Positions 723 through 63,665 of a stretch of 64,000 nt of DNA are shown in pieces. The stretch is taken from sequence record KF147891.1. One strand, 5' to 3'. The DNA is from Pseudomonas phage PaBG. The number at the start of each line of letters is the position of its first letter. The first letter of the stretch is position 1. The notes below the pieces were generated by a model, which was not told the DNA's origin, did not search any database, and worked only from the letters and a program-made list of their open reading frames with translations. A program made the position numbers and the translations under genes.

Positions 723-1565
723 TTACTCGGCGTCGATCATTGCCTGTGCAACGATACGGGTCCAGTTCTCGATCTTCGGGTTGTCGAGAATCTGACGTGC
801 GGTAGCCAGTGGACGTGCGAGCAGTTGTGCTTCACGCGGCACGGCAGTGATGCCGGACGGGATGTCGATGACGCTCACGATGCCCAGGTGCAGATGGCCG
901 ACATCGTCGCTCTGGTCCCAGATCAGGCCCTTGAACTTCGGCTCCAGCTTCGGGCGCTCGGTGAGTTCCACGCCGTTGCTGTCCAGCAGCAGAACTTCCT
1001 GATCGAACTCACGACCGGCGCTGATGCTCAGGGTTGCGACGACATCCACGGTGCTGTACGCTTCTTCGGTGATGTCGCCGAAATCTGCACCGTTCTCTTT
1101 GGCGACCAACTGCAGGTCACCCACGGACATGAAGTCGGCATGATCGACGTGGCCGCCGTAGCCGACACTGTCGTTACCTGCGAGGCGCGATTCACCGACA
1201 CCCTTGCCGCGCTGGTACATGAAGTAGTAGTACGTGCCTTCGATGATGGTGCGAAGAACGCGATACGGAAGCAGTTGCAGCTTGGTACGGTCGCCCAGGT
1301 AGTTGATCGGCGGGACGCGCTTGTAGTCAAGCTCGATGCCGTGCATGTTGGCGATGTGGTCGATCAGGCCGATGATTTCTTCGCGGCCGGTCTTGCGGTT
1401 GTCGAGTACGTCGCGCAGGCCGCTGATCAGGTGGGTACGAGTCGCTGCGAGGAAATCATCCTCGAATACGGAGTTGAACCCGTTACGCAGACCGAGCTGC
1501 TTGATGAACGGGAAGGCCTCAACGGCCAGAATGTGTTGTGGGTGCTTCATTCGATTGGCTTCCAT
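723..1565 (-). CDS. hypothetical protein (280 aa)
   Basis: Long minus-strand ORF in the coding-dense region. No family recognised by eye. GYGGHVDHADF segment noted but not assignable. Confidence 0.45.
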   Translation of the reverse strand: MEANRMKHPQHILAVEAFPFIKQLGLRNGFNSVFEDDFLAATRTHLISGLRDVLDNRKTGREEIIGLIDHIANMHGIELDYKRVPPINYLGDRTKLQLLPYRVLRTIIEGTYYYFMYQRGKGVGESRLAGNDSVGYGGHVDHADFMSVGDLQLVAKENGADFGDITEEAYSTVDVVATLSISAGREFDQEVLLLDSNGVELTERPKLEPKFKGLIWDQSDDVGHLHLGIVSVIDIPSGITAVPREAQLLARPLATARQILDNPKIENWTRIVAQAMIDAE

Positions 1566-1597
1566 GTTGGGTTGAACAGCGATACTCGTTTACAGTT

Positions 1598-1636
1598 CCG
1601 CAGAAACGAAAATGGGAACCCGAAGGCTCCCATTTT
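1598..1636 (-). terminator. intrinsic terminator: GGGAGCC-UUCG-GGUUCCC hairpin followed by a U-rich tract on the minus-strand RNA
   Basis: Plus-strand sequence aaaatgggaacccgaaggctcccatttt lies immediately 3' of the stop of the 1638..1919 gene. UUCG tetraloop and 7-bp GC-rich stem. A/T runs on both flanks, so it could be bidirectional. Confidence 0.55.
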
Positions 1637-4574: not shown

Positions 4575-4835
4575 TCAGTTCTTCACAGTTTCGCTGACTG
4601 CCTTCTTATTGGCACAGTACAGCTCATACTTCCGAAGTTGTTCCAGCGCATTTTCGTAGCTAACCTTCTCGCCGATGGACTTCGTGTATTTCTCACGGAA
4701 GACGCAATGGCTTTCACCGACCACCGGAAAGCCTCCAACGGTCAGTGTGCAGACCGTGGTGGTGCCACGGTACTGGAAGGTTGTGTTCTCGATGAGACCA
4801 AGCAAGTAGTCCCTTGTTATCAGCTTTGCATCCAT
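4575..4835 (-). CDS. hypothetical small protein (86 aa)
   Basis: Minus-strand ORF overlapping the next gene by 16 nt. Confidence 0.35.
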   Translation of the reverse strand: MDAKLITRDYLLGLIENTTFQYRGTTTVCTLTVGGFPVVGESHCVFREKYTKSIGEKVSYENALEQLRKYELYCANKKAVSETVKN

Positions 4836-24211: not shown

Positions 24212-25897
24212 CTCTTCCTTCTTGGTGGAGTCGATGGCTTTCTGCACCTTGGCACTCGGGCGAATGCCCAGCTTGGTGTAAAACTCCGCCAGAATCTCCG
24301 GGCTGATGTAGTTTTGAATAGCCGTGTTGCTGGTGATCTTGTCGCCACTCATGTGACCAAGCTCGGCACCGATCTTGAGCAGTTCGGTCTCCAACCACTT
24401 GTGGACATCACGATCTTTCCAGTTGCCGCCTTTCTTGAACGGGCTGTCCTTGAGCAGCGCCAGTGCCATCTCAGTACCGCGCGCCGTACGCAGCTTGTGC
24501 ACCGTGAAGGCTTTCGGGAAGCCTAGGGTACGCATGTAGCGGTTGATCATGGCGCCAGTGACCTGAGCGTTCTTGAAGGTGAACACGTGGTCGTTCGAGC
24601 CTTTGCCTTCGATCAGCTTGTGCAGAGCATCGCCCAGTTGCTTGCCACGCGCCGAAGTGAACTTGAGCTTGTGGGCCTGCTTACCGCCGGACTTGCCGAT
24701 GTAGGTAACAGTGGCGCCATTGCCTTGGGTGTTGAACTTGAAGTGCTTGACCAGAAGCTGCGTGGCGCCGTACGTCTTCTCGCCACCTGTGGCTGCATTC
24801 TTGTTGCCGACGCGAGCGCTGGTGTCGTAGATGAACTCGCACAGTGTCGCCAGCACACCTTCTTTCGACTTGTTGACCTTGCGCAGATCAGGCAGCCACT
24901 TCTTGGTCAGTTGGCTGAGCTTCGGCATGACTTCGGCCACGACGTTGAATTTCTCGGCCTTGGCGCCAGTACGGTACGACTCGGTGTAACCGCGGGTCGC
25001 GTTCTGGGCGAACGGCGGCGTGAACTCGCAGACGTATGCGTTGTCCTCGTCGGCGTTGTACTTCGGATTCATCTTCACTTCACCGCTGGGGCTTTGCAGC
25101 AAACGCTTGCCGGCAGTGGTGTAGAAGCGGCCCAGGTCATCGATGTTGCCAACGAATCCAGTAGGTAGGTTGTGGACGATACCCAGCGACTTGAGCTGGG
25201 AGATAACGTCACGCAACGGCAGATATGGCTGGCCAGATGCACGCACCAGATTCGCCAGAGCCTTCTTGAAGATGTCGTTGACTTCCCGGCGGAGCTTCAG
25301 GTACTCGGTATGGCCCTGGGTTTTCTCACCCTTGGCTTTGTTGTGTGCCTGCCACTTCTCCAGAACTTCGGTGGGCATGATGTAGCCAGATACGCCACCA
25401 TGGCGCTTCACCAGAGCTTGCAGCTTCTTGTACACGTCGCCGGTATCGATGCCATCAACGTCGTGCGTGTAGAACTGCGTAACCATCGGATCGCCGATGG
25501 CCGTGACGCCGCGCAGCAGTCGCTTGGCGGCAGACTCGCTACCAAAATGCGCCAGACGGAAGTCTTTGAGTAGCCCGAGTTGGGCGCGGCTGATGTCCGT
25601 TTCCTTCTCGAATGCCTGGGTCTTGGCTTTCAGTGCTTCCAGCAGCTCGGTGATGGCAGCATCTGCGGTATCGTCTTCTGCTGGATTGGCGCCACCAACC
25701 ACAGAGCGCACGGCAGCGCTGGTGAGTTTGGTGAGTTTGAATTTGGTCAGAAACTCACCCGCATCGCGCTCCCACATGTTCATGCGGCGCAGTTGCTCTC
25801 GATTGAGCTTGATGTCGTAGGTGACGTAGAGGGTTGCCAGTAGCTTTAGGAAGGAGACAACCGAATCCTTCTGTACGGCGCTAAGACTGGTGTGCAT
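24209..25897 (-). CDS. type IB topoisomerase-like protein (poxvirus/bacterial TopIB catalytic domain) with ~300-aa N-terminal extension
   Basis: C-terminal half contains ARVGNK (Arg), YIGKSGGKQAHKLKF (compare vaccinia FVGKDKVSHEF, catalytic Lys), VHKLRTARGT (compare LRTY) and LGHMSGDKITSNTAIQNYISP (His...Tyr nucleophile). The His-Tyr spacing is longer than in vaccinia. Confidence 0.5.
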   Translation of the reverse strand: MHTSLSAVQKDSVVSFLKLLATLYVTYDIKLNREQLRRMNMWERDAGEFLTKFKLTKLTSAAVRSVVGGANPAEDDTADAAITELLEALKAKTQAFEKETDISRAQLGLLKDFRLAHFGSESAAKRLLRGVTAIGDPMVTQFYTHDVDGIDTGDVYKKLQALVKRHGGVSGYIMPTEVLEKWQAHNKAKGEKTQGHTEYLKLRREVNDIFKKALANLVRASGQPYLPLRDVISQLKSLGIVHNLPTGFVGNIDDLGRFYTTAGKRLLQSPSGEVKMNPKYNADEDNAYVCEFTPPFAQNATRGYTESYRTGAKAEKFNVVAEVMPKLSQLTKKWLPDLRKVNKSKEGVLATLCEFIYDTSARVGNKNAATGGEKTYGATQLLVKHFKFNTQGNGATVTYIGKSGGKQAHKLKFTSARGKQLGDALHKLIEGKGSNDHVFTFKNAQVTGAMINRYMRTLGFPKAFTVHKLRTARGTEMALALLKDSPFKKGGNWKDRDVHKWLETELLKIGAELGHMSGDKITSNTAIQNYISPEILAEFYTKLGIRPSAKVQKAIDSTKKEE

Positions 25898-34530: not shown

Positions 34531-34926
34531 GGCTTGAAGTCCTCACCGTCTTTCAGGAAGCGCTTGCGTTTGATGTCGTAGCGAATGGCGTGGTAGAACT
34601 CAGCAAGGTTCGCGTGCTTGAACCGCGGCAGGTCTGCGAACATGAGCGGCAGCTCCATAGCGAACACTGCGTCGACCTCTGCCCAATTCGTGCGAACGCT
34701 CTTAAACGTCGCGGGCAACTGCCACCCATTGCCTGCCTTCTGCGACTTCGCCAACTGTGCAGAAAAGGCTCTGCGCATTCGCTGACGGAACGCACTGTAC
34801 GAGCGATAAGTGTTGTTGACACCATTGACTCGCCCAAACGGAGGCAGCTCAAAGAAATGGAGTTCCTTGTGCTTACCTCCTACGGAGACTATGGCGTAGA
34901 TGGTGTTCTCGGTGAACTGTTCTTCC
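34527..34926 (-). CDS. hypothetical protein (~133 aa; internal start MEEQFTEN), paralog of 33832..34530
   Basis: The track ORF overlaps the spike gene by 125 nt. The ATG at ~34926 has AAGGAGA 6 nt upstream. Confidence 0.35.
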
Positions 34927-34938
34927 ATGTTGGTCTCC

Positions 34939-35748
34939 TTAACCGTTGGTCTCGGAGCGCGCACATTCGATCCGATGAACTTGCGCAATTTTCTCGAAGC
35001 GGTTCTTGCCAACGACCAGCATATCGTTGCCGTTGATGACAGTCTTGCGGTTGCCCTCGACAAGCATCGTCTGGTCGCCAGTGACGTGGATGTGGCGGTT
35101 ACCAGCTTGTGCTGGACCGAGCAAACCAGTGAACTCGATTTCCTTGGCAGGCTTCGGCGACAGGCGGCTGAGCACCGTATCAGGTGCGTTCAGCAGATAG
35201 CCGGAAATCAAACCCTTGGTGTCGGAGACGACGAGCTGCTGGTTGCCGACGATGTACTGGTTAACGTCACCCAGGATCGTGATGTCCACGTCGCCTGGGT
35301 TGTTGAAGAAGATTTCGTTGGTCTTTGTATCGATGATGATGTACATGCCGTTGCTGAACTTCACAACGGCGCGGTCTGGGTAGTTCTTCTTGCGTTCAGG
35401 AAGAGCCACCTGCTCATCGACGGTGTACGGACCCCAGACACACCGATGCGGGTCAGCAGTTGGGAAGCGCAGACCTACCTTGTGCTTGTTCTTCGGTACC
35501 ATGAACGTACCGGCGCGATCCGTTGCATCGCCTCCCGGGTTGTATGCACCATCAGCGTGATGATACATAGGAACAGCCCAAGGCAGATGATCGTCAGGGA
35601 TGCCATCAAACACCCCGTCAATACGAGCCTGTATGCGACCGAGTTGTCGGGGATCGTTGTTATTAACCACATGTGCTTCATAGGTCATCTTTGGGTCAAG
35701 CCCCTGTTGGGACATGAACCGAGTAATGTTGAGTGGGCCACCAGCCAT
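34939..35748 (-). CDS. baseplate central spike protein (gpV/gp5-like: OB-fold plus beta-helix)
   Basis: N-terminal LGRIQARIDGVFDGIPDDHLPWAVP (gp5/VgrG OB-fold-like). C-terminal repeated HVTGDQTMLVEGNRKTVINGNDMLVVGKNR beta-helix units. Confidence 0.5.
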   Translation of the reverse strand: MAGGPLNITRFMSQQGLDPKMTYEAHVVNNNDPRQLGRIQARIDGVFDGIPDDHLPWAVPMYHHADGAYNPGGDATDRAGTFMVPKNKHKVGLRFPTADPHRCVWGPYTVDEQVALPERKKNYPDRAVVKFSNGMYIIIDTKTNEIFFNNPGDVDITILGDVNQYIVGNQQLVVSDTKGLISGYLLNAPDTVLSRLSPKPAKEIEFTGLLGPAQAGNRHIHVTGDQTMLVEGNRKTVINGNDMLVVGKNRFEKIAQVHRIECARSETNG

Positions 35749-35960
35749 TATCGCACCATTTCGACAGTGGCGATCAAGTCGTCAATGTCGCCTTTAAGGA
35801 CGTACTCTTTCAGGTTGTTGAGCACGGCCTCATACAGCGTTTGGTCGGCACGGGCAGTCTCAACGAGTTTGGCAGTTGCCAGGGAGAACTGCCCTTCCTG
35901 TATCAGGTTCGACACTTGGCGGGTGAGTTCTAGTACGGCATTCGCAGATTCAGCAGTCAT
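35748..35960 (-). CDS. hypothetical small helical protein (70 aa)
   Basis: Minus-strand ORF sharing 1 nt with the spike gene. Confidence 0.3.
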   Translation of the reverse strand: MTAESANAVLELTRQVSNLIQEGQFSLATAKLVETARADQTLYEAVLNNLKEYVLKGDIDDLIATVEMVR

Positions 35961-36592
35961 GATGCTTCCAATTCCATAGCGTCACAGGTGACAAAGGCTT
36001 TTCGCCGATGCCGGACGACGTTCACGATGCACACGTCGAAGCCGTGTGCCATGCCGATCGTGTGCAACACGCGCTCGAACGATGCTCTGATCGTTGGATG
36101 CGCCAGATTGTCTGGAGTGAACTTGGCGAGTTCGCCTGTACGAATCTTCGACCGATACACGCGGTCCAGTACGTCTTCGCCCGTATGGATGATCAACGGG
36201 TTTCGGCTGGACGGTAGTTGCAAGTAGTCGCTCATTGGCTCGGAGTTCGCAGGTGTAACAAACACGCTGCGCAAGCCCGGAAGGCGCACGTCAAAGTCTT
36301 CGTAGTTCTCGCTCACGGAACCCATATACAGGCGCAAGGCATGTTTCAGGATTCGTTTCTTGTTGTGCTTTCGTCGGCACGCCAAAAACATGACGGCCAG
36401 ATTCTCAGGCAACGCCAGGAAGGACACGTTCCTGGACTGCAAATAGTCCATGATGACCTTACGGCGATGCACCATGTCGTAAAAGATGGAAGCATAGACG
36501 TCGGTCGTGACGAATATCGGTACGACCAACACATCGGCCGCCTGGAAGAGGTCGGCCGGATTGATCGGCTCGTAAATGATCTTGACCTGCAT
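35957..36592 (-). CDS. hypothetical protein (211 aa)
   Basis: Minus-strand ORF. Confidence 0.4.
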   Translation of the reverse strand: MQVKIIYEPINPADLFQAADVLVVPIFVTTDVYASIFYDMVHRRKVIMDYLQSRNVSFLALPENLAVMFLACRRKHNKKRILKHALRLYMGSVSENYEDFDVRLPGLRSVFVTPANSEPMSDYLQLPSSRNPLIIHTGEDVLDRVYRSKIRTGELAKFTPDNLAHPTIRASFERVLHTIGMAHGFDVCIVNVVRHRRKAFVTCDAMELEAS

Positions 36593-36624
36593 AGTTCTTC
36601 TCCCACCGGTCCTACTGCGGAGAA

Positions 36625-36647
36625 ATTACTTGCAGGTCAAGTAATTC
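36625..36647. promoter_or_regulatory. AT-rich perfect inverted repeat AATTACTTG-caggtc-CAAGTAATT (candidate operator)
   Basis: 9-bp perfect arms with 6-nt spacer in the 53-bp gap upstream of the 35957..36592 start. Too AT-rich and without a U-run for a typical terminator. Confidence 0.35.
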
Positions 36648-36984
36648 ACGGTGCAAAGTCGGCGATTACGTTCCAGATGATGCGCCCGCGTAAGTCCAGC
36701 GGCGCGGTTGCGTAGTTCCAATAGAAGCGGTCGGACGTCTCGTCTGATCGGCACTCCTCATCGCTCAACCCTTTGTAGGTGATGATGGCGATGTCACTGT
36801 TCATGTACTTCACGTACAGGCGGCGCTGCTCCTCAGTGAGCTTCGCTTCACACCGCGCGATCAGGTTGAGGTCATACGGCGTAGGCGATTCGGTTGGCGA
36901 CAGATCGTGCAGGACGTTCGCCAGAAGCCAAGCTACCTTCTCCTCTGTGGAATATTCGTGCCACTGTGTAACTGTCGAGGTCAT
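36646..36984 (-). CDS. hypothetical protein (112 aa)
   Basis: Minus-strand ORF in the accessory island. Confidence 0.4.
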   Translation of the reverse strand: MTSTVTQWHEYSTEEKVAWLLANVLHDLSPTESPTPYDLNLIARCEAKLTEEQRRLYVKYMNSDIAIITYKGLSDEECRSDETSDRFYWNYATAPLDLRGRIIWNVIADFAP

Positions 36985-37373
36985 TCTTCTGTCTCCCCGA
37001 TGTCGCCAGCCAGTACGGAGATGGCCTCTTTAAAGGCACCCCAGTCCATGAGACGTTGTGTGAATCGGCGAGCAACCTGCCCGACAGTAGCGTACACCAG
37101 CAAGGCGTCAAACTCGTTGGACACATGCGACAAGGGCGTGCGATGTTTGCCTTGTGAATCGCAGCGCACCATAGAAACTTCCATGGTGAACGCAGGCCCG
37201 TCTTCCACAAACGTCACACCCACTTTGAGGGTTTCGTTCGTGGTGTTGATCAGGAACGAACACTTGTGGCGAAGTTCATCCAGAGGGATTTTCGCCATGT
37301 CTTCGATGTGGAAGCTGTCCAACGCGGCACCCAGGGTGGTCACGTTAGTTTCTGTCTCGTTTGACTTCGGCAT
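36981..37373 (-). CDS. hypothetical protein (130 aa)
   Basis: Minus-strand ORF in the accessory island. Confidence 0.4.
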   Translation of the reverse strand: MPKSNETETNVTTLGAALDSFHIEDMAKIPLDELRHKCSFLINTTNETLKVGVTFVEDGPAFTMEVSMVRCDSQGKHRTPLSHVSNEFDALLVYATVGQVARRFTQRLMDWGAFKEAISVLAGDIGETEE

Positions 37374-37896
37374 AGAAGTACAACTCCTCTTGTTTCACAT
37401 GTGCCATGCGATACTTGGTAATCGCAACGCCCGGTCCTTTCTCATCGTCACGGTGCTCCATGAGCAGCTTGCCGTGGATGTTCTTACCGTCACCGTTGCG
37501 GCCAGTACCAAAATAATCGTCCCAGGGCGCGTCTTCGATCAACTTGGCGTTGCCGGTTTCAGTCAACCAACGCTGGAGTAGCGGGTTCTGATGGAACTGA
37601 TAGCGGATCGCTTCGCGCATGATGTCCTTGCGCCGAGCATCGAAGCCTTCGACAATCGGACAGCCGGATTTGGCGCTGCCAAAGTATTTCGCACGGCTGC
37701 CTTCACTGGCGTTGATGATCAGGCTACGGAACGCCTTGTCCTTGGTCTTGTGTGCTTGGTAATAGTGTTCGCGCGAACGGAACAGCACCAGCTTCTTACC
37801 CAAGGGAGCAATGAAGGGTGCTTGGAAGAACGCGCTCAACCATGCGTATTCGTACACACGGCTGTTGAAGCGAATCTCTTTAACCTTCTTGGCCAT
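37345..37896 (-). CDS. NADAR / YbiA-family (DUF1768) protein, probable start at MAKKVKEIRF
   Basis: Aligns along its length with E. coli YbiA: IRFNS..YEYAWLSAFFQAPF...REHYYQAHK (compare INFYS..GDFSNFAAWPI...SEHYFQAQK) and APWDDYFGTGRNGDGKNIHGKLLMEHR (compare DAYWGDGGHGKGKNRLGYLLMELR). Confidence 0.75.
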   Translation of the reverse strand: MAKKVKEIRFNSRVYEYAWLSAFFQAPFIAPLGKKLVLFRSREHYYQAHKTKDKAFRSLIINASEGSRAKYFGSAKSGCPIVEGFDARRKDIMREAIRYQFHQNPLLQRWLTETGNAKLIEDAPWDDYFGTGRNGDGKNIHGKLLMEHRDDEKGPGVAITKYRMAHVKQEELYFYAEVKRDRN

Positions 37897-38143
37897 CGAA
37901 CGGCTCCTCGTGCGCAACGGTGAGTTTGATTTGCACATGCTCCGCAGGCTTCAACACCTGAAGTTGCGTATTGGCTCCACGAAGTGCGCGTTCGCGGTTA
38001 AACGTGCCTCCGTTGCGGGTACAGCAGCCTTGGATAAAACCCACCAGCTTGGTTTGATCACCGCTCATTTCCGCATCTACGCGAAGGCGACGAATCTCTT
38101 CCAGATCGGCAGGAGTAACATAAACAACCATTGATTCGGACAT
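37880..38143 (-). CDS. hypothetical protein (~88 aa; start MSESMVVYV)
   Basis: Strong AAGGAGG Shine-Dalgarno 7 nt upstream of the internal ATG at ~38143. The track start at 38218 would run through the terminator. Confidence 0.4.
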   Translation of the reverse strand: MSESMVVYVTPADLEEIRRLRVDAEMSGDQTKLVGFIQGCCTRNGGTFNRERALRGANTQLQVLKPAEHVQIKLTVAHEEPFDGQEG

Positions 38144-38179
38144 GGGGAATCCTCCTTTGTGTAGTTTTACAGTTTCGGA

Positions 38180-38214
38180 GGCCAAAAAAAGGGCGACTAC
38201 CGTTAGGTAGCCAC
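38180..38214 (-). terminator. intrinsic terminator downstream of the portal gene
   Basis: Minus-strand RNA GGGUGGCUACC-UAAC-GGUAGUCGCCC (11-bp stem) followed immediately by UUUUUUU. Confidence 0.6.
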
Positions 38215-38242
38215 CCAAGTCGTAAGTCCCTCTCAGGACGAG

Positions 38243-38333
38243 CAGGCACGATCGGACGCGAAAGGAGTAACGCTCGCCGCCTTTCCGAAGCTCGCAGCAA
38301 CACCGGAAGTGGCGATTAACCGATCGTGCCTGC
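38243..38333. repeat. 91-bp element bounded by perfect 14-bp inverted repeats (GCAGGCACGATCGG ... CCGATCGTGCCTGC) with internal sub-hairpins
   Basis: Read directly from the sequence. The 63-nt interior contains GAAAGG...CCTTTC and other complementary segments. Located in the 211-bp gap 3' of the portal gene. Confidence 0.45.
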
Positions 38334-38354
38334 TCTTACTTCACGAAATTAGCA

Positions 38355-40232
38355 TCAGAACTCGATGTGACGAGCCTTGGTGCTGTGCGTAAGCGGAGTG
38401 CGTTGGTTGCGTGTGATGTCAGCCAACTGGCGTGCAATCTTGCGGTTGACACGCTCATTCGCCAGCTTCTGGTTTGGCAACCAGCGACGTTTGCCGTCGT
38501 GTGTCTCGCCAGCAACTTCCATTGCCTCGCCGAAATTGCGTTGAGCCAGTGCTTTCATGCGACCAGTACCTTCACTGAGCACGGAGCCACGAACGCCACG
38601 GTTGTAGTTCTCGTAGAACAGGTCAGTACGTGCCATTGCAGCAGCAAGTGCTTCGTCACCCCCGCCGGCAGAGTCACCTTCAGGCATGTACTCCTTCTTA
38701 ACGTCGGCGAGACGCTTCTGGTACTTGCCGATACGCTTGAGCAGCTCGAAGTCGTCTTCCTGGTCAGCGAGCAAGGCGTCGAGGTTGAACCCGCCGGCAG
38801 CAGCCATAGCGCGAAGAGGCACAGGAACGCCTTTCTCGGTCAGAGCTTGCAGCATATCGAGATACGCCTGATCGCCTTCAGGCTTGAGCTGCTTGGCCCA
38901 GTGCACCGACGGAATCAACAGGCGAGAACCGTCCTGCAGAATCTCATGGTTGGACATCGAATCAAACTTGTCCAGCATGTTGCCTTTGATGGACAGCTTG
39001 CCGCTACGGTTCACGGTGAATCCGTGCAGCGCCGACACCAGCGGGAAGATTTTGTTGTAGAACAGCTTCGTGGTGATCGTGTCACGATACGAACGCAGAG
39101 CTTCGATGAACACGGTCAGCGACGTGTCCGCGTTGGAGTACGTGGCCTCACCGCTCAGGAAGGACTCGGAGATACCCAGGGCGCGCAGCTTCATCGCCAT
39201 GGTTTGATCCCAGATGTCCGTTACCTTCCAGAAGTCACCACCTTGGCGAATCTCCTCAGTGCTAATACCCATACGGGTTGCGATAACCGCACCCAGTGGG
39301 TCAGCGTCAGCGTTCTGGAACAGCTCCATAGCCATCTGCATATCGGCCATGGTCGGTTCCCACTGGTCACCGTCACCCAAGGTGAGGTGCAGGATACCGC
39401 GCTGACGACGGGCCGACTCCACTAGCGTCCCGCGGAACAGGTTCTTTTCCAGCAGCCAGATTGGCAGGATGCGACGGAAGTACGACACACCAGTCGAATT
39501 GGTGAACGACTTGCGTGGGATGTAGATGGTCGACAGCGGGTCCAGCTCCAGTGCATCGTTACTGATCTGCTTGACGACTTCCGCACCAAGGTACTCGCGC
39601 AGCTTCTTGATCCGTGGACTGTCGCTGCCCATAACTGCCTTGTGGCTGTCAGGGAATGCCACAGTAATCAACGGGTCCTGCGAATAGAACGGCAGCGGAT
39701 CAACCTTGCAGTTCTCATACTGGTGACAGATGAGGTCTACGAAGGTGTTCTTCTGCGGGTTGTACAGCATGTTCGCAACGAACGCGCCAGTCACCTGGTG
39801 GTCAATGGACAACTCGGGCAGCAGCGTACGGATGTTCAGACGTTCGATCACTTCCTCGAACGCTGCACTCACCTTTGGGTTCTGAATGCCGCCGATGTTG
39901 AAGTCGGAGAACGGCAATGTGGACGTCAGGTCAACGCACGATCCACCGATCGGGTCGTTGTAGTAGATGTCCTTGTACAGGCGCATGATGAGCTTCTTTT
40001 GTTCAAGGTCTTCGGAGAAGACGATGTCCTTAAGAAGCGGATCAATGTCGATTTCCAGGGGGAGCGAGGACACGCTGGTGTTTTTCAGCGGAGTACCTGC
40101 GGTAGCCTCAAACCCTTTGCCGCCTTTGCCTCGACGACCTGTATCATGGACACCAATATCGCGTGACGAGGTTGTGCCTGTACTTTGCGGCGCACCCTGA
40201 TGGATGAAACTCTGTTTGGACTTGATGCGCAT
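38355..40232 (-). CDS. portal protein
   Basis: 625 aa, separated from terL by one small gene. Size and helical core composition typical of portal proteins. No motif-level confirmation possible by eye. Confidence 0.5.
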   Translation of the reverse strand: MRIKSKQSFIHQGAPQSTGTTSSRDIGVHDTGRRGKGGKGFEATAGTPLKNTSVSSLPLEIDIDPLLKDIVFSEDLEQKKLIMRLYKDIYYNDPIGGSCVDLTSTLPFSDFNIGGIQNPKVSAAFEEVIERLNIRTLLPELSIDHQVTGAFVANMLYNPQKNTFVDLICHQYENCKVDPLPFYSQDPLITVAFPDSHKAVMGSDSPRIKKLREYLGAEVVKQISNDALELDPLSTIYIPRKSFTNSTGVSYFRRILPIWLLEKNLFRGTLVESARRQRGILHLTLGDGDQWEPTMADMQMAMELFQNADADPLGAVIATRMGISTEEIRQGGDFWKVTDIWDQTMAMKLRALGISESFLSGEATYSNADTSLTVFIEALRSYRDTITTKLFYNKIFPLVSALHGFTVNRSGKLSIKGNMLDKFDSMSNHEILQDGSRLLIPSVHWAKQLKPEGDQAYLDMLQALTEKGVPVPLRAMAAAGGFNLDALLADQEDDFELLKRIGKYQKRLADVKKEYMPEGDSAGGGDEALAAAMARTDLFYENYNRGVRGSVLSEGTGRMKALAQRNFGEAMEVAGETHDGKRRWLPNQKLANERVNRKIARQLADITRNQRTPLTHSTKARHIEF

Positions 40233-40239
40233 GATTACC

Positions 40240-40794
40240 TCAATCGCTGACCTTGTATTGCTTCTTCACTTCGCGGATGCGGTAGATGAAGAAACGACCT
40301 TGGCTCTCGGCGGCTTCGAGTTGCTTGGCGAGCTTCAAGGACACATCCTCGTAAACCCAGTGAACGTCGCTGTGGAAGACGACGTGTAGTTCCTTTGCCT
40401 TCTTGTCGAGCCAGGCGCGTGCCAGATTGGACGAGTCGATCTGTAGGACGTACAGGTTCGGATCGTTCTTGTCAGGCACATTGGAGGGCGTGCGCTTTCC
40501 CTTGCTGGATTTGACAGGAGCGTCAAGGCCACCCGTGCCCGCTTCAACAGGCACAGAACGAATCTTACCCTTCCAGCCTCTGGAGTTGTTGATAATGCGC
40601 TTGGCATCTTTTTCCTTGATCTTGAAGCGCACGTCGAGGTCGGAGCGCGCAACGACGTAGTGGTTGGCGCCGATCTTGCGATAGCCGAACTTGGCTTCTT
40701 TAACCAACTGGAGGTCGAACTCTGGATGATCAGTCACCAGCACCACATCGCGGCCCTGATACAGGAACCATTTATACCGTGAAATGTCGATCAT
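40240..40794 (-). CDS. hypothetical protein (184 aa) between terminase and portal
   Basis: Minus-strand ORF. Basic central region. Confidence 0.4.
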   Translation of the reverse strand: MIDISRYKWFLYQGRDVVLVTDHPEFDLQLVKEAKFGYRKIGANHYVVARSDLDVRFKIKEKDAKRIINNSRGWKGKIRSVPVEAGTGGLDAPVKSSKGKRTPSNVPDKNDPNLYVLQIDSSNLARAWLDKKAKELHVVFHSDVHWVYEDVSLKLAKQLEAAESQGRFFIYRIREVKKQYKVSD

Positions 40795-58348: not shown

Positions 58349-58945
58349 TTAGTCGTCCAGATCGTCGTCGTCTTCGTCGGCCTTTTTCTTCTTGCCCTTC
58401 TTGGACTTCTTGCCTTCGGCTTTCTCGGCCTTGGCTTTCTTGTCCTTCTTGGACTTCTTGCCTTCACCGCCGGCAGCGGCTTCGTCTTCGGCGCGAACTT
58501 CGATGCGAACATCGTCGCGTTGATACAGCTTCACAGTTTCACCGGAAGCGGTCTGGATGGTCATGATGCCACCCTTGTCTTCGACCAGGCGACCGACAAC
58601 TTCGCGGATGGCGACTTCGCGGAACACGGTCACAGCGGAGACTTCGCCGACGGCGCCGAACACTTCGACGACATCGCTACGGGAGAAGCGGCTGACCACA
58701 GTCTTCTGCGAAGCGCTGGTACGCTTGTGGCGCAGCATGACCGCGTCGGTGCCGTCTTGAACCAGGAAGCCACCGATTTCGACAGCTTGGCGAGCGAACA
58801 CGGTGAACGTGAACATCGCGGACTTGGCCTTGAAGCTGGTCTTGGCGCTGATGTTCTTCAGGCGCTTGGCGATCTTGTCGGTACGGGACAGGCGATTCGC
58901 GGTATTGCGCTTTTTCGTTTTGTCTTTTGCCATGGTGTGTATCAC
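58349..58945 (-). CDS. basic protein with C-terminal KAEKAEGKKSKK repeat and acidic DEDDDDLDD end
   Basis: Shares the 47-nt DNA repeat with 56996..57655. Probable start MAKDKTKKRN. Confidence 0.45.
   Translation of the reverse strand: MIHTMAKDKTKKRNTANRLSRTDKIAKRLKNISAKTSFKAKSAMFTFTVFARQAVEIGGFLVQDGTDAVMLRHKRTSASQKTVVSRFSRSDVVEVFGAVGEVSAVTVFREVAIREVVGRLVEDKGGIMTIQTASGETVKLYQRDDVRIEVRAEDEAAAGGEGKKSKKDKKAKAEKAEGKKSKKGKKKKADEDDDDLDD
58404..58450. repeat. 47-nt intragenomic repeat (copy B)
   Basis: Identical to ~57141-57187. Confidence 0.6.
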
Positions 58946-62327: not shown

Positions 62328-63665
62328 TTACTCGGCCTCGACTTCTTCCATGCGGGCGACGTCGGCGATGGACTTGCTGCGGAACTTCAGGCTGTCCAGG
62401 TTGAGCAGCTTGACAGTTTCGTCGGCTTCGTCGTAACCAACCAGCAGGAACTCATGCTTATCTTCCTTGCCCTTGAGTACGGTCTGGCCGGGCACCATGT
62501 CGTCACCGAACTTGTCCTCGATTTCATCGCTGGCGAGATACGCCTCGACAAAACCGCGAACTTTGCCTTCGCTCAGGTTCGGAGCACGCTCGCGGATGGC
62601 GTTGACCATGTCTTCGACGCTGACGGCGTCTTCGGACTCATCTTCTTCCTCCTCGTCGTCCTCGTCCTCGTCTTCGGACTCATCGTCCTCGTCGTCTTCC
62701 AGCTCACCATCGTCATCGCCGACTTCATCTTCGTCCTCGTCGCCAGCCTCCAGTTCGACGCCAGCCTCATCTGCGGCTTCGCGGATGGCGTCATCGTCGT
62801 TGTCGTCGTCTTCGCGGATGAGGGCGATAACCGCCTCGGCGTCCATCGACTTCTTGGTGGTCAGGCCGAGCTTGCGCGCGATCTTCTTGAGGTCGGCCAC
62901 GTCGAGGTCGCCGAGAAGTTCGTCTTCCAGGCCTTCATCGTCCTCGTCGTCATCGTCCAGACCTTCATCGTCCAGGCTGTCGTCGTCCTCGTCGTCATCA
63001 GGTGCGACGTCGGTGGCTTCGCGGTGTTCGCGGATGTACGCCTTGATTTCCTTGTCGGACTTGCTGCCCGGCATCAGGGTGATGGTGACACGGAGCGCGT
63101 TCTCGTTGAACTGCGCACCTACAGCGACCGGTACCACGTCGTACACGCCGCTGGCCGACAGTGCATTGCCAAGCAGTGCAAACGCATCGTTGCTGATCGC
63201 TTCGGCGTTACGCTGATCGAACGCTTCGACCAGTTTCTTCTTGGCAGCCTTCGGCTTGGACTTCGGCGCTTCGGGCTCGTCTTTCTGCTTGGAGGTACGC
63301 GCACGCTTGCCAGCAGGTGCACCTTCTGCCTCGGCTGCTTCGCGCTTCAAGCGACGGCGACGCTGGCGTGCGGTTTCACCGGCGGGTGCATCGTCATCGT
63401 CTTTCACCTTACGGTTGCGGGCGCGAGCCGGCTTGGTCGGCTCTTCCTTGGCGGCTTTCTTGCCTTTCTTCGGAGTGTCGAAGAAGAAGCCGGGGCCGCG
63501 CTTGTAGATGCCGTCGATGTGGACGCGAGTGCCGTCCTCGGTGATAGCTTCGCCAGTCTTCACCACGATCTTCTCGACGCGGTGACGCTCACCGTCGATG
63601 GTGATGCGCTTGCCTTGCATGCCTTTCAGGTCGTCTTTAGTGATAGCCATGTTCTGAGTCCTCAT
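62328..63665 (-). CDS. acidic/basic low-complexity protein (445 aa) with SAP/Rho-N-like helix (LDVADLKKIARKLGL)
   Basis: N-terminal basic region (KKGKKAAKEEPTKPARARNRK...RQRRRRLKR). Two long Asp/Glu tracts. DLKKIARKLGLTTKK motif. Probable start MAITKDD. Confidence 0.45.
   Translation of the reverse strand: MRTQNMAITKDDLKGMQGKRITIDGERHRVEKIVVKTGEAITEDGTRVHIDGIYKRGPGFFFDTPKKGKKAAKEEPTKPARARNRKVKDDDDAPAGETARQRRRRLKREAAEAEGAPAGKRARTSKQKDEPEAPKSKPKAAKKKLVEAFDQRNAEAISNDAFALLGNALSASGVYDVVPVAVGAQFNENALRVTITLMPGSKSDKEIKAYIREHREATDVAPDDDEDDDSLDDEGLDDDDEDDEGLEDELLGDLDVADLKKIARKLGLTTKKSMDAEAVIALIREDDDNDDDAIREAADEAGVELEAGDEDEDEVGDDDGELEDDEDDESEDEDEDDEEEEDESEDAVSVEDMVNAIRERAPNLSEGKVRGFVEAYLASDEIEDKFGDDMVPGQTVLKGKEDKHEFLLVGYDEADETVKLLNLDSLKFRSKSIADVARMEEVEAE

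Follow-up and report, generated by a model that had tools for sequence, protein, structure and literature searches.

The subject of this analysis is a stretch of 64,000 nucleotides from Pseudomonas phage PaBG (sequence record KF147891.1), referred to below as the window, and in particular a gene on its minus strand (37345..37896) that encodes a 183-residue protein of the NADAR family (YbiA-type), a call supported by Pfam, homologs and a ribosome-binding site. Judged from its sequence, this is a genuine and intact NADAR (YbiA-like) enzyme gene. What is shown directly is the family and the fold of the protein, the integrity of its active site, purifying selection on the gene and its genomic neighbourhood. 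The protein is likely to be active in vitro on base-linked ADP-ribose (ADPr). The full biological claim, according to which it is an active base-ADPr glycohydrolase serving counter-defence against host ADP-ribosyltransferases (ARTs) that modify nucleic acids, appears somewhat probable; it is held less firmly than the activity itself because the in vitro activity of NADARs is no predictor of protection in vivo (PMC11125620).

Results

A first-pass annotation, made by a model from the letters of the window, had assigned the gene to the NADAR/YbiA family and proposed a profile search as a check. In this search the protein matched Pfam PF08719 (NADAR/DUF1768) at 75.2 bits (E=9.3e-21, profile positions 8-160 of 163), well above the gathering cut-off of 35.1 bits; it also matched PHROG 1017, a family of unknown function. 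The AlphaFold2 (AF2) model of the protein shows the alpha+beta NADAR fold, a helical core with a small beta-sheet on each of two flanks, and had a predicted local distance difference test (pLDDT) value of 89.5; its significant matches in the PDB were NADARs only (2B3W, 8BAU and 8BAT). The family membership is thus backed by the hidden Markov model, the fold and the catalytic residues. E. coli K-12 YbiA aligned in BLASTP with 36% identity, residues 8-150 against YbiA 17-154 of 160 (E=2e-19), and YbiA is also the closest solved structure by sequence (E=8.7e-15, against 0.34 for PnNADAR). The first-pass annotation had described the alignment with YbiA as end-to-end, which holds for the whole NADAR core (8-150) but not for the 33-residue C-terminal tail (residues 151-183, ~37446..37348, minus strand), which has no counterpart in YbiA. 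This tail is specific to the clade of the window protein, where it is kept with Y162 and the motif L172-x-F-Y. At the other end the core begins at about residue 7, and an N-terminal extension is absent.

The contacts of the PnNADAR-ADPr co-crystal were mapped onto the window protein through a profile alignment to 8BAU. E43, K50, R89 (PnNADAR R93), E121 (E125) and D126 (D130) are kept, and F85 and F129, also aromatic, take the places of W89 and W133 of PnNADAR, respectively. The mapped positions are invariant or nearly so across 34 homologs, the catalytic residues E43 (codon 37770..37768), K50 (37749..37747), E121 (37536..37534) and D126 (37521..37519, all on the minus strand) being invariant, and the same E-K-E-D pattern is common to 137 of the 179 aligned NADAR domains. 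The E/H/Y/Q catalytic block, on whose conservation the initial assignment had been made to depend, is present as EHYYQAHK. E121 sits at the end of strand 118-121, and a Glu in the last beta-strand, in place of Asp or His, is the feature by which the YbiA-type subfamily is recognized (PMC11543638, PMC11125620). In the least saturated pair, the ratio of nonsynonymous to synonymous substitution rates (dN/dS) of the NADAR was 0.09, the same as that of the portal gene.

The full open reading frame (ORF) extends to an upstream ATG (37345..37938, minus), so that two starts had to be compared. A GAGGAG Shine-Dalgarno sequence, read from the sequence at 37904..37909 (minus) within the 3' end of the preceding gene, lies 7 nt 5' of the ATG at 37896, and the alternative ATG at 37938 lacks a comparable ribosome-binding site. 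Moreover, the 34 close homologs (52-97% identity) without exception have about 180 residues and start with MAKK... at the equivalent Met, and the identical protein was found on three Logan contigs, where independent gene calls gave 183 residues. Therefore, the start is placed at 37896, where the first-pass annotation had put it.

The placement of the protein within the family was examined with curated models. The best of these was TIGR02464, the NCBIfam equivalog-domain model for the riboflavin-intermediate N-glycosidase, which the window protein matched at 69.6 bits against a trusted cut-off of 73.7 bits. On the same model E. coli YbiA scored 169.5 bits, the nearest outgroup representatives 73-122, the NADAR of a T5-like Salmonella phage (UTK0009) 76.5, the clade relatives of the window protein 66-69, bas32_0066 of phage Bas32 66.3, and the NADARs of the jumbo Pseudomonas phages Lu11 and HRDY3 54 and 45, respectively; T4 gp30.3 gave no match. 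The cut-off of NF053876 (DS32_2, NADAR family anti-phage protein; 240 bits) was not reached by the window protein, which scored 34.5 bits. When 1.84 billion cluster representatives were searched exhaustively, 5963 NADAR relatives were returned, only two of them at E<1e-30, and all of the distant matches stop near residue 150. Because of these scores, the two close matches and the common end point near residue 150, the window clade is best described as a narrow, divergent and peripheral YbiA-type branch with its own conserved C-terminal tail. By its residues the window NADAR is a divergent YbiA-type (Glu-type) protein, neither DarG1-type nor T4-type, and by its score it is as YbiA-like as bas32_0066. 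A single NADAR copy is present in the window.

In bas32_0066, encoded by the T5-like phage Bas32 (IrisVonRoten), an orphan phage NADAR with a core of about 150 residues and the E-K-E-D pattern is found, as in the window; the two proteins share 31% identity (E=2e-13), which speaks for a distant relationship only. Unlike the window gene, bas32_0066 adjoins an RNase H gene and is surrounded by genes of nucleotide metabolism and replication instead of portal and spike genes, and its product lacks the C-terminal tail. YbiA of E. coli (PDB 2B3W) and the YbiA of Chondromyces crocatus, antitoxin of YarT, differ from the window gene in that the latter is phage-encoded and without ART pairing; it also lies outside a LexA-controlled dinG/ybiB locus of the YbiA kind. 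The closest GenBank homologs are Lu11 gp295 and the NADAR family protein of HRDY3 (41% and 35% identity, 85 and 79 bits), whose genes are found elsewhere in their genomes, among hypothetical genes and about 85-90 kb from the portal (gp295 at L006:3983-4510, HRDY3 XDJ14976 at L008:4040-4498). Both have His at the position of window E121, as has T4 gp30.3, and the HRDY3 protein also has Ser at the K50 position and an annotated coding sequence that lacks the N-terminal strand. These changes may reflect altered substrate, decay or a mis-called start. AdfN-T4 (gp30.3) is likewise an orphan phage NADAR, which removes guanine-linked ADPr from DNA and counters DarTG1, but its similarity to the window protein amounts to 16 bits only, it is His-type where the window protein has Glu121, it is encoded in the early-gene region near the ligase gene, and it cannot remove cytosine-ADPr. 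DarG1, the BC4488-type antitoxin of DarTG1, has the superfamily fold of the window protein and acts on guanine-ADPr; it was compared by its structure (8BAT) only. The window NADAR shows neither the catalytic Asp nor the N-terminal beta-beta-alpha DNA-binding extension of DarG1/BC4488, nor is a DarT1 gene adjacent to it. What it shares with the AdfN class is that it is a phage-encoded, stand-alone NADAR with intact active-site residues and no toxin gene beside it. A single NADAR from a T5-like phage matches 489 GenBank phage records, many of which are annotated as 'swarming motility protein', 'GTP cyclohydrolase II' or 'YbiA-like N-glycosidase'.

The gene lies in a block of minus-strand genes bounded upstream by the portal gene (38355..40232; PHROG 16240, E=3e-290; 56% identity to the Lu11 portal) and downstream by the baseplate central spike gene (34939..35748; PF04717, PF06715, PHROG 430; 43% identity to Lu11 gp193), the product of which combines a gp5/VgrG-like OB domain with gp5 C-terminal repeats. 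Both neighbours had been correctly named in the first-pass annotation, and its small unknown genes around the NADAR proved to be five without a family match in 35748..38143. The block opens with ORF87 (37880..38143; AAGGAGG at 38157..38151), which fills a variable slot and overlaps the NADAR by 17 nt. The 3' end of the NADAR overlaps by 29 nt with orf130 (36981..37373), which has no database match and is the fastest-evolving gene of the block; orf130 in turn overlaps orf112 (36646..36984), a homolog of Lu11 gp192 (tblastn, 31% identity, E=4e-9). After a gap of 53 nt follow orf211 (35957..36592), which is clade-restricted and without an enzyme-like fold, and the small orf70 (35748..35960), whose start overlaps the 3' end of orf211 by 4 nt and whose stop codon ends on the base that opens the spike start codon (ATGA junction). 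The orf211 family is confined to this phage clade (22 clusters, always 210-212 residues, 37 invariant positions) and is absent from Lu11 and HRDY3; its AF2 model (pLDDT 81, predicted template modelling score 0.55) bears a weak likeness to POTRA repeats and to gp25/TssE sheath-initiator folds, and the protein may be structural rather than enzymatic. Family and fold searches among the block neighbours found no partner enzyme for the NADAR. The long plus-strand ORFs antisense to NADAR and orf130 (36907..37581 and 37591..37923) and to the spike gene (34900..35979) were rejected as spurious artefacts of the 55% G+C content, because the minus-strand genes are those conserved in relatives.

In Lu11 and HRDY3 a single small gene (gp192, 97 residues) is all that separates the portal gene from the spike gene. 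In the window, three genes (ORF87, NADAR and orf130) have been inserted on the portal side of orf112 and two (orf211 and orf70) on its spike side. Since orf112 is the gp192 homolog and carries extra genes on either side, the arrangement is best read, relative to this outgroup, as two separate insertions flanking orf112. The order portal, zero to two small ORFs, NADAR, genes of about 130 and 112 residues, genes of 211 and 70 residues and spike is identical in five further genomes. Core genes are 77-89% identical to those of the window (three of the five relatives scored), and the corresponding values are 58-77% for NADAR, 32-46% for orf130, 50-55% for orf112, 54-55% for orf211 and 56-66% for orf70, which indicates that the inserted genes evolve faster than the core genes; they are nevertheless under purifying selection. 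Within the block, variation in content is confined to the slot between the portal terminator and the NADAR, which holds an 87-residue ORF in the window, is empty in L001, contains ORFs of 99-100 residues (about 36% identical) in L003 and L016 and is occupied in L004 by two ORFs of 70 and 96 residues, the slot ORFs being without a family match. The first-pass annotation had spoken of an accessory island with the typical placement of anti-defence cargo. The genes are indeed additional with respect to Lu11 and HRDY3, whose NADARs sit elsewhere, but at least five diverged genomes carry them at the same place and in the same order, and on that ground the block is not variable cargo. It also includes the Lu11-conserved orf112 and the possibly structural orf211, and its abutting genes run into the spike gene, which does not fit the description of typical cargo.

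A structured spacer of 211 nt separates the portal gene from ORF87 (38144..38354, minus; minimum free energy -94.5 kcal/mol, z=-7.09). Within it, at ~38334..38241 (minus), a 14-16-bp covarying stem surrounds an invariant TGCTGCGAGCTT core, with nine covarying pairs in five related genomes. The spacer RNA matched no Rfam family and gave no hit in a tRNA scan; it could be a stabiliser of the 3' untranslated region, a regulatory element or a small RNA. After the portal gene lies an intrinsic terminator (38191..38216, minus) with an 11-bp stem containing seven G-C pairs followed by U7, the position of which is kept in relatives. Between the terminator and the ribosome-binding site of ORF87, a GAAACTGTAAA box (38166..38176, minus) is a candidate core of a middle or late promoter. 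The box is invariant as AAACTGTAAA in five relatives and resembles CTGTAAATATAAATAA, the annotated middle/late promoter that follows the portal gene in Lu11. With at most one mismatch allowed, GAAACTGTAAA occurs five times in the window where 0.59 occurrences would be expected, each time on the minus strand, which is the main coding strand. The other four copies (1589..1599, 4582..4592, 58530..58540 and 62410..62420, minus) are not clearly intergenic, and a promoter regulon is not claimed from them. The NADAR thus appears to begin a new transcription unit, after a strong terminator, that runs into the baseplate genes, and the block is probably co-transcribed with the spike gene. Therefore, the terminator, the promoter-like box and the overlapping genes suggest middle or late expression of the NADAR, possibly with packaging into the virion.

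A megablast search with the 3.1-kb region found no nucleotide match among GenBank phages, and relatives are therefore recognizable at the protein level only. The portal protein is 54-56% identical to those of Lu11 (280 kb) and HRDY3 (314 kb), in gene order the window follows Lu11 gp184-gp203 (DnaB, large terminase, KTSC protein, portal, spike, dTMP kinase and topoisomerase IB), and the metagenomic relatives are contigs of 109-232 kb. For these reasons the window is assigned, on protein identity and gene order, to a Lu11-like jumbo myovirus. A homolog of Lu11 gp299 is encoded at 723..1565 (minus; 29% identity, E=7e-13); gp299 lies four genes from the Lu11 NADAR and is the only gene near it with a homolog in the window, at the left edge. 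The region syntenic with that of the Lu11 NADAR may therefore begin at the left edge of the window and continue beyond it; a second NADAR copy outside the window is conceivable. A metagenome scan with the gp299 homolog of the window found no relatives.

A Pfam screen of 50 ORFs in the window, run as an alignment of unrelated ORFs and giving counts per family without specifying the matching ORF, detected no other NAD or ADPr gene, including no ART, Macro, SLOG, Nudix or DUF4326 domain, and no riboflavin or GTP cyclohydrolase gene. With the ORF at 40240..40794 excluded, it returned a further KMPT-N match and a SprT-like metallopeptidase match. A sigma-70 region 2 match and a VgrG3-like C-terminal domain (E=1e-74) are also present in the window. 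The ORF at 40240..40794 (minus), between terminase and portal, encodes a KMPT-N and KTSC protein whose position is kept in all relatives, and on the L017 contig, which carries an identical NADAR protein, a 448-residue KMPT-N and SprT-like gene was called 3' of the spike gene. The catalytic core of a eukaryotic-type topoisomerase IB is encoded at 24212..25897 (minus; PF01028, E=5e-15; 38% identity to Lu11 gp203).

Discussion

The reading of the window NADAR as a counter-defence enzyme is based on the published biochemistry of NADARs, on the AdfN proteins of other phages and on the 31%-identical bas32_0066. Representatives of all NADAR families, E. coli and C. crocatus YbiA and T4 gp30.3 among them, hydrolyse guanine-linked ADPr in single-stranded DNA and RNA; the YbiA and NADAR families additionally remove ADPr from cytosine, and the NADARs tested were inactive on thymine-ADPr and on ADPr at phosphate ends (PMC11543638, PMC11125620, PMC11833690, PMC12945103). 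In 2025, AdfN-T4, AdfN-Bas32 and AdfN-Bas60 were described as countering DarTG1 by stripping ADPr from phage DNA, AdfN-Bas32 neutralising DarT1 and rescuing phages from DarTG1 (PMC11825919). The premise of the first-pass annotation, that NADARs reverse guanine ADP-ribosylation and that phage NADARs can counter DarTG1, accordingly agrees with the literature (PMC11543638, PMC11825919).

What the window enzyme acts on, what it does for the phage and when it is made are inferred as follows. The ADPr moiety would be bound via K50, R89 and D126 and the aromatics F85 and F129, and E43 and E121 would cleave the bond between the distal ribose and the amino group of the nucleobase. In this way ADPr would be removed from guanine, and probably also from cytosine, in single-stranded DNA or RNA. 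For the phage its most probable task is counter-defence, in which it would erase from phage nucleic acid the base ADP-ribosylation placed there by host toxins such as DarT1 of DarTG1 or by YarT-like or pierisin/ScARP-like ARTs, in a role parallel to that of AdfN in T4, Bas32 and Bas60. A more elaborate proposal, which we consider rather unlikely as a whole, is that expression of the NADAR is late and coincides with that of the portal and baseplate genes, that its tail (Y162, L172-x-F-Y) targets it to the virion, and that it is injected with the DNA and pre-emptively erases guanine- and cytosine-ADPr produced by non-DarT ARTs (YarT- or pierisin-like) as well as by DarT1, the Glu/His difference from Lu11 and HRDY3 marking a switch of substrate range.

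Several points weigh against the counter-defence function. E. coli YbiA and T4 gp30.3 expressed alone did not rescue cells from DarT1 toxicity (PMC11125620), and published NADARs vary in their specificity in vivo. In the view of Johannesman et al., YbiA-like NADARs serve mainly housekeeping functions. Two of the PnNADAR contacts are not kept, R79 being aligned with S74 and D86 with V82, with K76 and E83, both invariant, close by. Among curated models, the highest score came from that of a riboflavin-intermediate N-glycosidase, whose cut-off the protein narrowly misses. Furthermore, bas32_0066 is presumed to be AdfN-Bas32 from being the sole NADAR in the 26 kb of the Bas32 genome examined. Finally, the apparent late co-transcription with structural genes would be unusual for an enzyme that acts early, unless it is packaged in the virion.

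Other functions have to be weighed against these observations. The protein could serve in metabolite damage control as a riboflavin-intermediate N-glycosidase, as proposed for YbiA. The near-threshold match to TIGR02464, the finding that YbiA is the solved structure nearest to it in sequence, the Glu-type catalytic residue as hallmark of the YbiA subfamily and the housekeeping view of Johannesman et al. all point in this direction. However, the score remains below the trusted cut-off and far below that of YbiA, and the presumed AdfN-Bas32, a validated anti-DarTG1 factor, scores alike. The absence of riboflavin and GTP cyclohydrolase genes from the window, the ability of YbiA-family enzymes themselves to hydrolyse guanine- and cytosine-ADPr on nucleic acids and the lack of an obvious gain for a lytic jumbo phage also make this function improbable. 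A comparably low probability is given to the degradation of soluble signals, in which the enzyme would cleave the N-glycosidic bond of small ADP-ribose derivatives formed in TIR, Sir2 or ART immunity (Thoeris-type) and would not act on nucleic acids. Such a role was predicted for phage NADARs by Iyer et al. (PMC9503650), who found phage Macro, NADAR and Nudix genes among morphogenesis genes and predicted packaging of their products for early action, and the intact ADPr-binding residues of the window protein are compatible with it. This activity has been demonstrated for no NADAR, those known so far being directed at base-linked ADPr or riboflavin intermediates, and no Macro, SLOG, Nudix or DUF4326 gene co-occurs in the window.

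The eraser might also be directed at the phage itself, reversing or limiting the modification made by a phage-encoded ART elsewhere in the genome of about 250-300 kb, either for self-immunity or for regulation. Pairs of ART and NADAR are known (DarT1-DarG1 and YarT-YbiA), and large myoviruses often encode virion-packaged ARTs such as T4 Alt, but no ART domain was found in the window or among the co-transcribed neighbours, and this possibility is regarded as less probable still. It is very improbable that the protein is a structural or assembly component in which the NADAR fold is retained and catalysis is irrelevant. The location of the gene in a run leading into the spike, the structural or conserved appearance of orf211 and orf112 and the clade-specific tail could be explained in this manner; the invariance of catalytic and ligand-binding residues in 34 homologs would not be expected for a structural role, and the Lu11 and HRDY3 homologs lie among non-structural hypothetical genes.

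Read as a counter-defence enzyme, the window NADAR is an ordinary addition to a described class of phage genes, the anti-DarTG1 role of AdfN having been published in 2025. Mildly distinctive are its Glu-type active site, where the nearest phage relatives are His-type, its clade-specific C-terminal tail and its invariable location in a probable late unit, with the portal gene on one side and the spike gene on the other; these three features support the candidate idea of a packaged, broad-spectrum eraser. If the counter-defence function is true, the reach of AdfN-type counter-defence would widen to include Lu11-like jumbo phages and the Glu-type, YbiA-like branch, which has so far been regarded mainly as housekeeping. 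The window clade and Lu11/HRDY3 would then provide a natural pair of Glu-type and His-type enzymes for dissecting the substrate specificity of NADARs, and possible expression late in infection, with packaging, would be relevant to how such an eraser acts early enough to protect incoming DNA.

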